Below are positions 54,458 through 60,161 of a stretch of 64,000 nt of DNA, one piece after another. Both the position numbers and the translations under genes were made by a program. Below the pieces are notes generated by a model that saw only the letters and a program-made list of their open reading frames with translations, made no database searches and was not told where the DNA came from. This DNA is from Escherichia coli (GTDB lineage Bacteria > Pseudomonadota > Gammaproteobacteria > Enterobacterales > Enterobacteriaceae). Numbering within the stretch: position 1 is the first letter of the stretch; each line of letters begins with the position of its first letter. The stretch lies in NCBI RefSeq assembly GCF_024223415.1, contig NZ_CP100500.1; one strand, written 5' to 3'.

Positions 54458-55192
54458 ATGTCCAAACTCGATCTAAACGCCCTGAACGAACTGCCGAAGG
54501 TAGATCGCATTCTGGCGCTGGCGGAAACTAACGCCCAACTGGAAAAACTGGACGCTGAAGGCCGCGTAGCCTGGGCGCTGGATAATCTGCCCGGTGAATA
54601 TGTGCTTTCTTCCAGCTTCGGCATTCAGGCGGCGGTGAGCCTGCATCTGGTGAATCAGATTCGCCCGGATATTCCAGTGATCCTCACCGATACGGGTTAT
54701 TTGTTCCCGGAAACCTACCGCTTTATTGACGAGTTAACGGACAAACTCAAGCTCAACCTGAAAGTGTACCGTGCTACCGAAAGCGCAGCCTGGCAGGAAG
54801 CACGCTACGGAAAACTGTGGGAACAGGGCGTTGAAGGCATTGAAAAGTACAATGACATCAACAAAGTCGAACCGATGAACCGGGCGCTGAAAGAACTTAA
54901 CGCGCAAACGTGGTTTGCTGGTCTGCGCCGTGAACAATCCGGCAGCCGCGCCAATTTACCGGTGCTGGCAATTCAGCGTGGCGTATTTAAAGTGCTGCCG
55001 ATTATCGACTGGGATAACCGAACGATATATCAGTATCTACAAAAGCATGGCCTGAAATATCATCCATTATGGGACGAAGGATATTTATCGGTGGGCGATA
55101 CCCATACAACCCGTAAATGGGAACCCGGCATGGCGGAAGAAGAAACGCGTTTCTTTGGCTTAAAAAGGGAATGTGGGTTACACGAAGGGTAA
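54458..55192 (+). CDS. cysH: Phosphoadenosine phosphosulfate reductase
   Basis: ATG at 54458 ([19 protein letters not shown]..., 244 aa); the ORF track start at 54305 is an extension through the REP. Confidence 0.95.
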
Positions 55193-55456
55193 ATATTGCC
55201 GGATAAATTAAACGCCTCTGTCAGAAATGATGGGTGCGTTTTTATTTTGCGAGCAGCATTCCTGATTTTAAACGTGAACGCCGCTGGAAGAATTATCAGG
55301 TATAGAATGGCGTCGGGTGCTTGAGGCTGTCTGGCGTTAAGCATTCGCGAGGTTCCAGATGGACAAAAGCCCCAGGCGATATTTCTATCAACCTGAGGCC
55401 AGCGTTCGAACCTAAGCAATTCGGATGTTAGTCTCTTCTTTGCAGGGAGGCAAGAC

Positions 55457-55609
55457 ATGCTAACAAAATATGCCCTTGTGGCAATCATAGTACTGTGTTG
55501 TACAGTACTGGGATTCACGCTCATGGTAGGCGACTCGTTGTGTGAGTTGAGTATCAGAGAACGTGGTATGGAGTTTAAGGCTGTTCTCGCTTACGAATCG
55601 AAGAAGTAG
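55457..55609 (+). CDS. hokX: Hok/Gef-family type I toxin (hokX-like), 50 aa
   Basis: Below the ORF-track size cutoff; GGGAGG SD 6 nt upstream; [50 protein letters not shown] = one TM helix plus the Hok signature (SLCE...R...AYES). Confidence 0.8.
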
Positions 55610-55614
55610 CCACC

Positions 55615-55636
55615 ACGCGGGGGTAAAACCCCGCGT
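55615..55636 (+). terminator. Hairpin at the 3' end of the hok-like transcript
   Basis: ACGCGGGG-gtaaaa-CCCCGCGT, 8-bp GC-rich stem, weak U tract. Confidence 0.5.
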
Positions 55637-55801
55637 ATTGAATTGTGATGGTTTGGTCTCCTGCACCCTTTTTTAAATTTATATTTTTTATGTGAATATA
55701 TTGTCTCTATTTATTATTATGAATTTCAAATGAAAATCATAAATTTATTCACAATATAAATGTTTTATTGGCTGATATATATCACAGATAATTTTTAAAA
55801 T
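55637..55801. promoter_or_regulatory. AT-rich region upstream of cas3 (probable cas promoter, likely H-NS target)
   Basis: About 165 bp, strongly AT-rich, immediately 5' of cas3. Confidence 0.5.
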
Positions 55802-58501
55802 ATGCGTAAATATCCTTTAAGTTTACTGAAGGATAAAAATATTGTGACTTTCTTTGATTTCTGGGGAAAAACCCGACGCGACGAGAAAGAAGGGGGTGAC
55901 GACTATCACCTTCTTTGCTGGCATTCGCTGGATGTGGCCGCGATGGGCTATTTAATGGTTAAAAGAAATTGCTTCGGGCTGGCTGATTATTTCCGTCAAT
56001 TAGGGATTTCTGACAAGGAACAGGCGGCTCAATTTTTCGCCTGGTTGTTGTGCTGGCACGATATTGGAAAATTTGCCCGCTCATTTCAGCAACTTTACCT
56101 GCACCCACAACTCAAGGTTCCGGAAGGCGCAAGAAAGAATTACGAAAAGATCTCTCATTCAACGCTGGGCTACTGGCTGTGGCATCATTATTTAAGTGAA
56201 TGCGAAGAATTGCTTCCTGCCTCTTCACTCTCTACTCGCAAACTTAAACGTGTAATAGCGATGTGGATGCCCATGACTACCGGGCATCATGGTCGCCCGC
56301 CTGACCGTATTGATGAACTGGATAATTTTCTGCCTGAAGACAAAGCTGCCGCGCGAGATTTTCTCCTTGAAATCAAGCCACTGTTTCCGCAGCTAGAGAT
56401 CCCCGCATTCTGGGATGATGACGAGGGCGTTGAACTTATAAAACAACTTTCCTGGTATATCTCTGCAACCGTCGTACTTGCAGACTGGACAGGATCGTCA
56501 ACGCGATTTTTTCCACGCGTCGCACAGACAATGGATATTGAAGATTACTGGCAAAAGGCTTTAGTTCAGGCTCAAAACGCATTAACCGTCTTTCCTCCAA
56601 AAGCAGAAACCGCGCCTTTCACCGGAATTAATACGCTGTTTCCTTTTATTGAGAATCCGAAACCGTTACAGCAAAAGGTGCTGGATCTGGATATCAGCCA
56701 GCCAGGACCGCAGTTATTTATTCTGGAGGATGTAACCGGCGCAGGTAAAACAGAAGCGGCGCTTATCCTGGCACACAGGTTGATGGCTGCGGGTAAAGCT
56801 CAGGGTTTGTTTTTTGGCCTGCCAACAATGGCAACGGCCAATGCCATGTACGATCGGCTGGTCAAAACCTGGCTTTCTTTCTATTCGCCAGAATCCCGCC
56901 CCAGCCTGGTGCTGGCACACAGTGCCCGCACATTAATGGACCGCTTTAATGAATCACTCTGGTCCGGTGATTTAGTCGGGTCAGAAGAACCGGATGAACA
57001 AACGTTCAGTCAGGGATGTGCGGCCTGGTTTGCCGACAGTAACAAGAAGGCGTTGCTGGCTGAAATTGGCGTCGGCAAGCTGGATCAGGCGATGATGGCA
57101 GTGATGCCGTTTAAACATAATAATCTGCGGCTTCTGGGGTTGAGTAACAAAATCCTGCTGGCTGATGAGATCCACGCCTGTGACGCTTACATGTCGTACA
57201 TTCTTGAAGGGTTGATTGAGCGACAGGTGCGTGGCGGAAACAGCGTCATTTTGCTTTCTGCTACGTTATCTCAACAGCAGCGCGACAAACTTGTCGCCGC
57301 CTTTGCGCGTGGCACAGAGGGCCAGCAAGAAGCTCCGTTCCTGGAAAAGGATGATTACCCCTGGCTGACGCATGTCACGAAATCCGATGTGCATTCGCAC
57401 CGGGTAGCGACGCGCAAAGACGTTGAGCGTAGCGTGAGCGTGGGTTGGCTTCATAGCGAACAAGAATGTATTGCGCGTATCGAATCAGCGGTAAGTCAGG
57501 GGAAATGCATCGCCTGGATCCGGAATTCTGTCGATGACGCTATTAAGGTTTATCGTCAGTTACTTGCCCGCGGCGTCATTCCTGCTTCCAGCCTTTCACT
57601 TTTTCATAGCCGCTTTGCTTTTAGCGATCGCCAGCGAATTGAAACGGAAACGCTGGCACGCTTTGGTAAAAATTGTAGTTTAAAAAGATCATCTCAAGTC
57701 ATTGTTTGTACACAAGTAATTGAGCAAAGTGTGGATATTGACCTGGACGAAATGATCTCCGACCTGGCCCCCATTGATTTGCTGATCCAGCGAGCGGGGC
57801 GATTACAACGGCATATTCGCGATATTAATGGTCAGTTAAAGCGTGATGGAAAAGACGAGCGTTCCCCTCCTGAATTGCTGATTCTGGCCCCCGTCTGGGA
57901 CGACGCTCCTGGTGACGAATGGTTCGGCAGTGCCATGCGTAACAGTGCATATGTCTACCCGGATCATGGGCGAATCTGGCTGACCCAGCGTGTGCTGCGT
58001 GAGCAAGGCGTTATTCAGATGCCACACTCAGCCCGCCTTCTTATTGAATCAGTCTACGGTGAGGACGTGGTAATGCCGGACGGATTTGCCCGCAGCGAGC
58101 AGGAGCAAGTGGGCAAATATTACTGCGATCGCTCAATGGCTAAAAAGTTTGTGCTGAACTTCAGGCCCGGCTATGCCGCCAATATCAACGATTACCTTCC
58201 GGAAAAGCTGTCGACACGTCTGGCTGAGGAATCTGTTTCCCTGTGGCTGGCTAGCTGTATTAACGGCGTGGTGAAGCCTTATGCCAGCGGTGCTCACGCA
58301 TGGGAAATGAGCGTTGTCAGAGTGCGCCGAAGCTGGTGGAAAAAACATCGGGATGAGTTTTCTTTACTGGAAGGGGAAGTGTTAAGGCAGTGGTGCATTG
58401 AACAGCGGCAAGATCCGGAGATGGCAAACGTGATTTTAGTCACCGATGACGAAAGTTGCGGGTATTCGGCTACGGAAGGATTGATTGGCAAGGTTGATTG
58501 A
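55802..58501 (+). CDS. cas3: Cas3 helicase-nuclease (HD domain plus superfamily-2 helicase), type I-E
   Basis: 899-aa ORF; HD motif (HLLCWHSLDVAA...WHDIGKF), Walker A (TGAGKTEAA), DEAH-like (LLADEIHA); start may be internal (GTG at 55844) because the ATG at 55802 lacks an SD. Confidence 0.92.
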   Translation: MRKYPLSLLKDKNIVTFFDFWGKTRRDEKEGGDDYHLLCWHSLDVAAMGYLMVKRNCFGLADYFRQLGISDKEQAAQFFAWLLCWHDIGKFARSFQQLYLHPQLKVPEGARKNYEKISHSTLGYWLWHHYLSECEELLPASSLSTRKLKRVIAMWMPMTTGHHGRPPDRIDELDNFLPEDKAAARDFLLEIKPLFPQLEIPAFWDDDEGVELIKQLSWYISATVVLADWTGSSTRFFPRVAQTMDIEDYWQKALVQAQNALTVFPPKAETAPFTGINTLFPFIENPKPLQQKVLDLDISQPGPQLFILEDVTGAGKTEAALILAHRLMAAGKAQGLFFGLPTMATANAMYDRLVKTWLSFYSPESRPSLVLAHSARTLMDRFNESLWSGDLVGSEEPDEQTFSQGCAAWFADSNKKALLAEIGVGKLDQAMMAVMPFKHNNLRLLGLSNKILLADEIHACDAYMSYILEGLIERQVRGGNSVILLSATLSQQQRDKLVAAFARGTEGQQEAPFLEKDDYPWLTHVTKSDVHSHRVATRKDVERSVSVGWLHSEQECIARIESAVSQGKCIAWIRNSVDDAIKVYRQLLARGVIPASSLSLFHSRFAFSDRQRIETETLARFGKNCSLKRSSQVIVCTQVIEQSVDIDLDEMISDLAPIDLLIQRAGRLQRHIRDINGQLKRDGKDERSPPELLILAPVWDDAPGDEWFGSAMRNSAYVYPDHGRIWLTQRVLREQGVIQMPHSARLLIESVYGEDVVMPDGFARSEQEQVGKYYCDRSMAKKFVLNFRPGYAANINDYLPEKLSTRLAEESVSLWLASCINGVVKPYASGAHAWEMSVVRVRRSWWKKHRDEFSLLEGEVLRQWCIEQRQDPEMANVILVTDDESCGYSATEGLIGKVD

Positions 58502-58598
58502 GATGTCTGCGACAGGACTCTCTGAATAGTTGATATACAGAAAAGGATGGAAAGATGGACAACCGACCTGGGATGGTCTTTTTTACGAGAGGATGCGT

Positions 58599-60161
58599 AT
58601 GAACTCGTTTTCACTTCTGACAACCTCGTGGTTGCCCGTTCGTTTTAAAGACGGAACGACAGGCAAACTGGCACCAGTCGATCTGGCTGATGAAAATGTT
58701 GTCGATATCGCTGCGCCGCGGGCAGATCTCCAGGGTGCGGCATGGCAGTTTTTGCTGGGGCTACTACAAACCAGCTTCGCGCCAAAAGATCATCGTCGTT
58801 GGGATGATATCTGGGAAGACGGACTGGAATCTGAAAAGCTACGGGAAGCATTGCTGTCATTAGAACACGCTTTCCAGTTTGGGCCAGATTCCCCTTCATT
58901 TATGCAGGATTTCGAGGCGCTCACGGGAGATAAAGTTCAGATCGCTTCGTTACTGCCTGAGATTCCCGGCGCTCAAACAACGAAGTTTAATAAAGACCAT
59001 TTTATCAAGCGTGGTGTAACGGAATACCTGTGTCCTCATTGTTCAGCGTTAGCCCTGTTCTCCCTACAGTTAAATGCACCGTCAGGCGGCAAAGGCTATC
59101 GCACCGGTTTACGCGGCGGTGGGCCGATGACCACTCTTATTGAATTACAGGAATATCAGGGCAATCAACAAACACCCTTATGGCGCAAACTGTGGCTCAA
59201 TGTGATGCCGCAGGATGAAGCCGACTTACCGCTACCCAAAAAATTTGACGATCTGATTTTCCCCTGGCTTGGCCCGACGCGTACCAGCGAACTGGCCGGT
59301 GCGGTGGTAACCGATGATCAGGTTAATAAACTCCAGGCGTACTGGGGAATGCCACGGCGTATTCGTATTGATTTTAATACCACGACAGTCGGCAACTGCG
59401 ATATTTGCGGCGAGCAGAACGACGCGCTCCTGAACCTGATGACGACCAAAAATTACGGCGCTAACTATGCCATGTGGCAGCATCCCTTAACGCCTTACCG
59501 TATACCACTTAAAGAGGGTGGCGAGTTTTACTCCGTTAAACCACAACCGGGCGGTTTAATCTGGCGCGACTGGTTAGGCCTTATCGAAACGGGTAAATCA
59601 GAAAACAATACGGAACTTCCCGCGCTGGTGGTGAAACTCTTTAATGCCAGCAGTCTGAAACAGGCAAAAGTGGGCCTATGGGGATTTGGTTATGATTTCG
59701 ACAATATGAAAGCGCGCTGTTGGTACGAACACCATTTCCCGCTGCTGCTCAATAAAAAAGAAGGCCAGATACCGAAACTGCGGCTGGCTGCGCAAACGGC
59801 TTCACGGATTCTGAGTCTGTTACGGAGTGCATTGAAAGAAGCGTGGTTCTCCGATCCAAAAGGTGCACGGGGTGATTTCAGTTTTGTGGATATCGACTTC
59901 TGGAACAAAACTCAGCATCGCTTCCTGAGGTTAGTGCGCCAAATTGAAGAAGGTCAGGATCCAGATGAATTACTCGGCAAATGGCAAAAGGAAATTTGGT
60001 TATTTGCGCGTCAGGATTTTGACGAGCGTGTATTCACCAATCCTTATGAGCCCGTTGATTTGAAACGCGTCATGACCGCACGCAAGAAATATTTTACAAC
60101 ATCGGCGGAGAAGCAAAATGCTAAAGCCGCCAGGGAGAAAAAGCAGGAGGCTGCTGAATGA
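58599..60161 (+). CDS. cse1: Cascade large subunit Cse1 (CasA / Cas8e)
   Basis: ORF track begins at a TTG (58530); the ATG at 58599 (MNSFSLLTTSWLPVRFKDG...) has a GAGAGG SD; Cse1 N-terminal signature; 520 aa. Confidence 0.88.
   Translation: MNSFSLLTTSWLPVRFKDGTTGKLAPVDLADENVVDIAAPRADLQGAAWQFLLGLLQTSFAPKDHRRWDDIWEDGLESEKLREALLSLEHAFQFGPDSPSFMQDFEALTGDKVQIASLLPEIPGAQTTKFNKDHFIKRGVTEYLCPHCSALALFSLQLNAPSGGKGYRTGLRGGGPMTTLIELQEYQGNQQTPLWRKLWLNVMPQDEADLPLPKKFDDLIFPWLGPTRTSELAGAVVTDDQVNKLQAYWGMPRRIRIDFNTTTVGNCDICGEQNDALLNLMTTKNYGANYAMWQHPLTPYRIPLKEGGEFYSVKPQPGGLIWRDWLGLIETGKSENNTELPALVVKLFNASSLKQAKVGLWGFGYDFDNMKARCWYEHHFPLLLNKKEGQIPKLRLAAQTASRILSLLRSALKEAWFSDPKGARGDFSFVDIDFWNKTQHRFLRLVRQIEEGQDPDELLGKWQKEIWLFARQDFDERVFTNPYEPVDLKRVMTARKKYFTTSAEKQNAKAAREKKQEAAE

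Follow-up and report, generated by a model that had tools for sequence, protein, structure and literature searches.

Gene content of the interval between cysH and cas3

The window analysed here is a stretch of 64,000 nucleotides of DNA from the species Escherichia coli (assembly GCF_024223415.1, contig NZ_CP100500.1), and our interest was in the part of it that lies between the end of cysH (position 55192) and the annotated ATG of cas3 (55802), which opens a downstream reading frame with Cas3 HD and helicase domains. The DNA from 55190 to 55810 was 100% identical to that of E. coli SCU-316, O78 strain 3, NCTC10444 and NCTC9112, and RefSeq gives the gene order in these strains as cysH, a 'Hok/Gef family protein' and Cas3; annotation thus bears out the arrangement of sulfate assimilation, toxin and cas3 that the original prediction had read from the letters alone. 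Over the same span the identity to O157:H7 EDL933 or Sakai is 97.7%. In the window the middle gene is a plus-strand ORF of 50 codons with an ATG start (55457-55609), hokX, which is predicted to encode a membrane toxin of the Hok/Gef family. Its product corresponds to RefSeq WP_000956458.1 ('Hok/Gef family protein'), and the identical protein has been annotated in many genomes. Upstream of hokX there was a weak match to ctRNA_p42d (55208-55250, E-value 0.37), which we rejected as merely a terminator-like hairpin of cysH.

The Hok/Gef signature that had been claimed for the 50-residue ORF was confirmed by a match to Pfam HOK_GEF (PF01848) that spans the profile from position 1 to position 42 of 42 (E-value 5.7e-10; 39.1 bits, cut-off 22). 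Reading the sequence by eye, we saw that residues 5-24 of HokX are hydrophobic, as in an N-terminal transmembrane segment, and that its SLCEL and LAYES have aligned counterparts in HokC, HokB and HokE-type proteins (the conserved C-terminal periplasmic motif SLCE...AYES). The NCBIfam Hok models scored under their curated cut-offs (NF007290, 53 bits vs 89; NF007279, 39.5 vs 73), and we therefore do not regard the protein as HokA and place it in a divergent branch of the family (the HokX/HokE clade); it has 78% identity to HokE-type proteins (locus L031) and 33-39% to HokB and HokC. Comparisons with cysH-linked orthologues gave dN/dS values of 0-0.22 with dS up to 1.2, and a comparison with a hokE-like paralogue gave 0.28; the HokX peptide is under purifying selection. 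From its family membership, HokX is predicted to be toxic. The strong Shine-Dalgarno (SD) sequence that had been noted ahead of the ORF is also there, as GGGAGG at 55445-55450 on the plus strand, 6 nt 5' of the ATG, and is sequestered by an upstream UCUCUU in a local hairpin (helix 11 of the fold described below) that is paired in 90% across 39 aligned loci.

Predicted hokX transcript and its fold

A likely -10 box for hok, TAGAAT (55303-55308, plus strand), precedes the predicted start of the mRNA by 6 nt and lines up with hokC TATAAT and hokB TAGGAT, in each case just 5' of a conserved GGGTGC; it has no good -35 partner, and a consensus promoter scan did not pick out the site. Downstream of this box the plus strand matches the Rfam family RF01794, 'sok', from 55315 to 55472 with 110.4 bits (gathering score 59) and an E-value of 7.7e-26, and we read this match as the hok leader. 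We set the 5' end of the hok mRNA at 55315, where both the Rfam model and the GGGTGC that is invariant in the 39 loci begin, and took its 3' end as the fbi box plus T-run; E. coli strains without cas genes retain the sequence as far as 55675 and no further. The predicted full-length hokX mRNA, made up of leader, hok coding sequence and 3' UTR, would be ~361 nt long (55315-55675, plus strand).

The minimum free energy (MFE) structure of 55315-55677 has -135.4 kcal/mol (z -4.75) and includes the fold-back of the mRNA ends that the original prediction had proposed to look for. In it a tac-like 5' box (GGGUGCUUGAGGCU, 55315-55328) pairs with the mRNA 3' end, and an fbi-like 3' box (GGUCUCCUGCACCC, 55655-55668), which is followed by T6, pairs with the 5' end; the pairing consists of helix 1 (GGGUGC 55315-55320 with GCACCC 55663-55668) and helix 2 (GAGGCU 55323-55328 with 55655-55660). 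We projected the MFE structure of the window onto the 39-locus alignment and saw helix 1 paired in 100% of the loci but invariant, with no covariation, so that the terminal helix rests on conservation and not on covariation, while helix 2 was paired in 80% and had 2 compensatory pairs; the controls for the tac/fbi helices, in which the partners were slid, gave 36-53% paired. The sequence GCACC(C/T) is kept in 38 of the 39 loci (GTACCT in the other one) within a 3' region that is variable around it. For the fold as a whole, 88.3% of the cells were paired vs 38-45% with partners slid, a fraction that is somewhat inflated because the structure came from one of the aligned sequences. This inflation does not extend to the compensatory evidence, which comprised 34 pairs with changes in both partners (195 cells) and was equalled in 0 of 500 shuffles. 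When the last ~39 nt were removed in silico, the mRNA 5' end took up a local hairpin instead, and the centroid structure now contained the sokT hairpin.

The GC-rich hairpin that had been described 3' of the ORF is present in the hok 3' UTR at 55615-55636 (plus strand; ACGCGGGG-GUAAAA-CCCCGCGU), with an 8-bp stem, -18.4 kcal/mol and a z-score of -3.76. As helix 16 of the fold it was 98% paired in the 39 loci, with compensatory changes at its base. We considered it as the hok terminator and rejected this, since no U-run follows the hairpin and the terminator scan came up empty.

The antisense RNA SokX

The Sok-like antisense RNA that had been expected but not delimited can be placed on the minus strand by mapping the annotated K-12 sokX (b4701, 2887353-2887411), which falls with its 5' end at 55417 and its 3' end at 55359; the DNA of this 59-nt span has only three positions that differ from K-12 sokX. 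The RNA, GCUUAGGUUCGAACGCUGGCCUCAGGUUGAUAGAAAUAUCGCCUGGGGCUUUUGUCCAU, is predicted to have a single-stranded 5' tail, a 14-bp hairpin and then UUUU (-23.3 kcal/mol), and the same stem, as helix 6 of the hok fold, was 98% paired in the 39 loci. Both ends of sokB and of sokC align to the same columns as those of SokX. A putative promoter on the minus strand (55453-55425) has the -35 box TTGCCT (55453->55448), a 17-nt spacer and the -10 box TAACAT (55430->55425), and the K-12 SokX 5' end sits 7 nt past this -10. In 39/39 loci neither the -35 box nor the 17-nt spacing varies, and the -10 box is TAACAT, TACCAT or TACTAT; the -35 box also lies opposite the hok SD region, to which it is complementary. 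This promoter was unlisted in our promoter scan because it falls below the 9-of-12 threshold. We rejected a further minus-strand site that resembles a promoter (55484->55457) as a second Sok promoter; its -10 is CAGCAT in most relatives, and it is probably due to chance. The transcript is documented in K-12, where RNA-seq saw SokX under every condition; for the allele in the window SokX is putative.

By its name, the plus-strand Rfam 'sok' match might be taken for the antitoxin gene itself. We rejected this reading: in K-12 hokC, hokB and sokX the RF01794 match falls on the hok strand each time, with the annotated sok opposite to it and nested within it, and from these three of three K-12 loci we conclude that the match marks the hok leader and that the antitoxin is on the minus strand.

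The missing mok start and an upstream ORF

An overlapping mok-like frame had also been expected, and here the prediction failed, as there is no canonical mok. In an alignment with K-12, the mokB and mokC start codons fall at 55406-55408 (plus strand, in frame with hok), where the window has TCG and no start codon, and all cysH-linked copies in Escherichia and Pseudocitrobacter have TCG or CCG at this position. There is no ATG, GTG or TTG in the hok frame from the TGA at 55394-55396 to the hok ATG, and in 55347-55424 none of the three frames has such a codon from which reading continues to the hok start. A 36-residue ORF at 55321-55431 was tried as mok and rejected, as it stops short of the hok SD and Pfam gave no match to it. 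All that overlaps the hok start is a 12-codon upstream ORF (uORF; 55425-55463, plus strand), a candidate substitute for mok; its TAA (55461-55463) overlaps the hok ATG (ATGCTAA), and it has a nested TTG in frame at 55440.

Among the related loci we saw three configurations of this region, with positions counted from the hok ATG. Klebsiella and Kluyvera intermedia have an in-frame ATG at -51 that gives an extended Hok of 67 residues; Kluyvera genomosp. 1 and Enterobacter have an ATG at -50 that opens an 18-codon uORF ending at +7; and all Escherichia cysH-linked copies, this one included, have their sole ATG at -32, with the 12-codon uORF ending at +7. The uORF has a weak SD (UAAG). Its AUG is base-paired to the region around the hok AUG, within the same conserved hairpin (helices 10-11) in which the hok SD is hidden. 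Conservation of the uORF is on its own no proof of translation, since the ATG and the SokX -10 box are complementary, a relation that alone accounts for the conservation, and we rejected the conserved ATG at 55425 as such proof, ATA replacing ATG where the box is TACTAT.

In the R1 system, mok start-codon mutations abolish toxicity, and mok translation is required up to the hok SD and not beyond the hok start (PMC9841398). As mok is needed only as far as the SD, the 12-codon uORF could take its place. With the mok start missing, coupling must come from this uORF or from direct initiation, and by analogy to the non-toxic R1 start mutants HokX may be poorly translated or not at all. Weighing on the other side, the low dN/dS in copies that all have no mok ATG argues that translation of HokX happens. 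The lack of a canonical mok start is the sole departure of the locus from the textbook hok/sok layout, a small oddity for those who study how hok translation is controlled.

Distribution across genomes

Searches of 5426 complete E. coli genomes found the leader and sokX part in 5425, the hok ORF with its 3' UTR in 4220, and the whole interval, including the cas3 upstream region present here, in 2239. The hok ORF is missing in ~22% of the genomes, and ~1200 of them are K-12-like in having no hok ORF. Where we sampled matches that end at 55675, hok was followed directly by iap, with no cas genes or CRISPR; sampled matches that end at ~55631 had IS421/IS186 in the GC hairpin, a class that we estimate by rank sampling at ~700-800 genomes. 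The GC hairpin is an IS186/IS421 insertion hot spot. Because the hok ORF is missing from ~22% of genomes and several hundred others have an IS in the 3' UTR, we regard it as dispensable. The original prediction had named disruption of the ORF in close relatives without consequence as a finding that would refute it; to the letter this applies, the ORF being dispensable, but the identity of the gene is unchanged.

A scan with the HokX protein over 100,044 species genomes found 56 loci, nearly all with an intact 50-residue ORF, in Escherichia, Pseudocitrobacter, Kluyvera, Klebsiella, Citrobacter, Enterobacter, Lelliottia and other genera. Within the flank that we fetched, cysH lies directly upstream in 12 of the 56 and cas3 downstream in 4, and hokX-like modules occupy many other genomic sites in Enterobacteriaceae.

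The cas3 upstream region

Beyond the hok module, an AT-rich spacer (55678-55801, ~17-23% GC) extends to the cas3 ATG, in agreement with the AT-rich stretch noted earlier, and is presumed to be the cas3 promoter region. It has one promoter-like match, CTGATA-18-TAAAAT (55772-55801), and because the -10 of this match abuts the annotated ATG, the true cas3 start may be the GTG at 55844, which has AAGGA ahead of it. The alignment with K-12 Cas3 starts only at residue 20 of the protein in the window (30% identity). The cas3 upstream region of the window is unrelated in sequence to its K-12 counterpart, and the CRP box that regulates cas3 in K-12 falls within sequence specific to K-12 and missing from the window. 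It had further been suggested that this variant lacks an internal cas promoter region; the gap between cas3 and casA is indeed short (97 nt vs 414 nt in K-12), and a simple scan of those 97 nt found no sigma-70-like site, which is compatible with the suggestion without proving it. Between hok and cas3 a simple scan found 0 canonical intrinsic terminators.

Proposed mechanism and alternative explanations

Taken together, the Pfam match, the Rfam match and the mapping of K-12 sokX bear out a Hok-family type I toxin gene with a Sok-like antisense RNA, and we are confident that the locus is the chromosomal hokX/sokX type I toxin-antitoxin module of E. coli, lying between cysH and cas3. It is a known element that has already been annotated and published, not a new one, as hokX/sokX beside cysH is in the literature: hok and sokX adjoin cysH in 90% of 237 urological E. 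coli strains, the rest having sokX alone as in K-12 (PMC12736100), and the hok gene of the cysH-iap region is a homologue of hokX of E. coli B (PMC7232551).

As a model of how the module would work, a weak promoter (-10 TAGAAT, 55303-55308) would give a stable, highly folded hok mRNA of ~361 nt whose tac-like 5' end pairs with its fbi-like 3' end while it is full-length. The hok SD and AUG would be locked in the local hairpin, so that no 50-residue toxin would be made from this form. The 5' end would be released once slow trimming had shortened the 3' end as far as the GC hairpin (55615-55636), with the truncated end expected at ~55638, and the leader would then refold into a form that is translatable and accessible to Sok. 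SokX, a short and presumably unstable RNA from the stronger promoter on the opposite strand (TTGCCT-17-TAACAT), would pair with the leader, block upstream ribosome entry and trigger cleavage of the duplex. For the processing step, the refolding switch and the RNase III decay we infer the mechanism from the R1 hok/sok paradigm.

That the ORF could be a chance reading frame with a spurious similarity to Hok is suggested by its length of just 50 codons and by the NCBIfam scores under cut-off, but the odds of this are vanishingly small: the Pfam match covers the full-length profile, the Rfam family matches the leader, 56 related loci have intact ORFs, dN/dS is well below 1 and RefSeq annotates the protein as Hok/Gef. 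Pfam, Rfam, the related intact ORFs and dN/dS have already refuted this explanation. A more serious alternative is that the locus is a translationally silenced relic, which has kept its RNA elements but with the loss of the mok start makes no meaningful Hok and is no longer a toxin-antitoxin pair. The TCG or CCG in place of the mok ATG in every cysH-linked copy of Escherichia and Pseudocitrobacter fits such a relic, given that R1 makes mok translation to the hok SD mandatory (PMC9841398); so do the pairing of the hok SD, the hok AUG and the uORF AUG, all in one conserved hairpin, the dispensability of the ORF (missing in K-12-type strains and with IS insertions in its 3' UTR elsewhere) and a report that the chromosomal hok loci of K-12 are non-functional (PMC7232551). 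Against it, dN/dS was 0-0.11 with dS of 0.16-0.56 among copies that have no mok ATG (L008, L009, L013, L014 and L022), which points to selection on the peptide and hence to translation; the 12-codon uORF extends over the hok SD, and its stop codon falls on the hok ATG, which is the minimal requirement defined in R1, and the 18-codon uORFs of relatives end at the same stop. On this evidence we consider a relic unlikely, but its probability is not negligible.

The original prediction had also asked whether the hok locus affects cas3. Such coupling of the hok/sok unit to cas3, by read-through or through the turnover of SokX and hok mRNA, would be favored by the lack of a canonical intrinsic terminator between the two genes, by a local 3' hairpin that is negligible (-3.1 kcal/mol), by the GC hairpin having no U-run, by the mere ~125 nt from the hok 3' end to the cas3 ATG, and by K-12, in which 92 nt separate cas3 from the hok promoter, leader and ATG that are fused upstream of it, the hok 3' UTR being missing in between. 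However, T6 stands directly 3' of the fbi helix, and the 3' boundary of hok at 55675 is unchanged in strains that have no cas genes, for which reason we regard the module as autonomous; hokX-like modules also occur at many sites without cas3, which is near only 4 of the 56 loci, and in the literature that we searched there was no report linking hok or sokX to regulation of cas3. We therefore hold a hok/sok effect on cas3 to be very improbable; it would be of moderate interest if true, and nothing at present supports such a link. A bolder combined proposal, which we hold to be improbable, is that the hokX lineage lost mok and came to control its toxin through the 12-codon uORF that stops on the hok start, with an AUG that is the complement of the SokX -10 and a ribosome-binding region under the SokX 5' end, and that the terminator-less hok unit could feed cas3; in K-12 it would do so directly, from a leader 92 nt upstream, and SokX would then be an antisense regulator of the cas3 5' region.

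Returning to the hokX/sokX module that we favor, the practical value of the analysis is mainly correct annotation, as the module is documented and present in most E. coli. The variable CRISPR-Cas I-E region has its left boundary at this module: the cas variant of the K-12 type starts directly behind the hok ATG, and in strains without cas genes the deletion begins just behind the hok 3' end.

Comparison with known hok/sok systems

We compared hokX/sokX with hok/sok (parB) of plasmid R1 by way of the Rfam model and a published account (PMC9841398). The two share a Hok/Gef toxin, a cis-antisense Sok against the leader, tac/fbi pairing, a 3' GC hairpin ~39 nt from the 3' end and a sequestered hok SD, and the refolding of the hokX 5' end upon 3' trimming in silico resembles the switch described for R1. 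They differ in that R1 has an overlapping mok frame of 70 codons whereas hokX has none, only the 12-codon uORF, and in that hokX is chromosomal, unlike the plasmid-borne R1 system; given this location we ascribe to it no role in plasmid stabilisation.

Of the chromosomal K-12 systems, hokE, hokB/mokB/sokB and hokC/mokC/sokC have a leader of the same family as hokX. The mokB and mokC frames have ATG starts under their Sok RNAs, whereas hokX has no start there. The IS186 downstream of hokC in K-12 (IS186A, 20 nt past hokC) stands at the same hairpin as the IS in the hokX variants. In K-12 MG1655 sokX (b4701) is the sole annotated feature between cysH and cas3. Aligned to the window, K-12 is near-identical from cysH through the hok ATG, with seven base differences (three of them in the sokX span), and unrelated beyond; it keeps the leader, the SD and the ATG, followed by a 5-codon remnant, and because the sequences diverge right after the ATG it has neither the hok ORF nor the 3' UTR. 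Compared with hokX/sokX as known elsewhere (SokX as b4701 in K-12, hokX in E. coli B and in many pathogenic strains), nothing substantive differs in the window.

Boundaries of the hok module

In K-12, the cysH-cas3 locus was found to retain the hokX promoter, leader, Shine-Dalgarno sequence and ATG with few base differences from the window; this remnant lies on the minus strand of our K-12 locus L002 (10221-10456) and is the counterpart of window 55315-55459. Similarity between K-12 and the window is lost directly past the hok ATG, and the boundary of the two I-E cas variants is therefore the hok start codon. Only 92 nt separate the remnant hok ATG from the downstream cas3 ATG in K-12, with no hok 3' UTR in that interval, so that SokX lies there antisense to a putative cas3 5' region. 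The other end of the module is marked by two E. coli loci lacking cas genes (L007 and L064), in which hok is intact precisely to its predicted 3' end at window 55675/55676; the entire cas operon and CRISPR array are deleted at this junction, and the sequence past it corresponds to the iap 3' region.

The start codon of cas3 is ambiguous in the window (55796-55846). The annotated ATG (55802) lies immediately 3' of a promoter-like -10, TAAAAT (55796-55801), and an alternative GTG start at 55844 has AAGGA 9 nt upstream; the Cas3 proteins of K-12 and the window share 30% identity, and their alignment begins only at window residue 20. The cas3-casA gap (58502-58599) is only 97 nt, compared with 414 nt in K-12, and holds a small hairpin (GACC/GGTC) with a T6 run after it; no sigma-70-like match was identified within the gap.

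Elements around and upstream of hok

Directly 3' of cysH there is a terminator-like hairpin with a T-run (55208-55250, plus strand), which probably shields hok against cysJIH transcription; Rfam gave this segment a weak, sub-threshold match to ctRNA_p42d (E 0.37). Within the first hok codons, the minus strand carries a second promoter-like sequence in antisense orientation (55457-55484; TTGCCA-16-TAGCAT, with a TG), which is probably a chance match because most relatives have CAGCAT as the -10. Across the HokX/HokE clade (loci L008-L061 and the window) three versions of the mok element occur: Hok is extended in frame to 67 aa (e.g., L024 and L037), an 18-codon uORF is present (e.g., L020 and L021), or, as in the window, there is only a 12-codon uORF. 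Both uORFs terminate at the hok start (ATGCTGA or ATGCTAA).

When tested on the K-12 loci of sokX, hokC/sokC and hokB/sokB, the Rfam "sok antitoxin" model RF01794 proved to be in hok-sense orientation and to cover the whole 157-nt leader, so that strand calls based on it assign the antitoxin to the wrong strand. Elsewhere in the window, Rfam RF00018 identified the CsrB sRNA gene (15362-15721, plus strand; 384 bits), which has no relation to hokX/sokX.

IS insertions in the hok 3' UTR

In several hundred E. coli genomes the GC hairpin within the hok 3' UTR (window 55615-55636, with the break at ~55631) is interrupted by IS421/IS186 in either orientation (e.g., L005 3730-4842 and L006 3846-4958), and the insertion cuts hok off from its own fbi box. 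The same type of target is seen at K-12 hokC, which has IS186A downstream.
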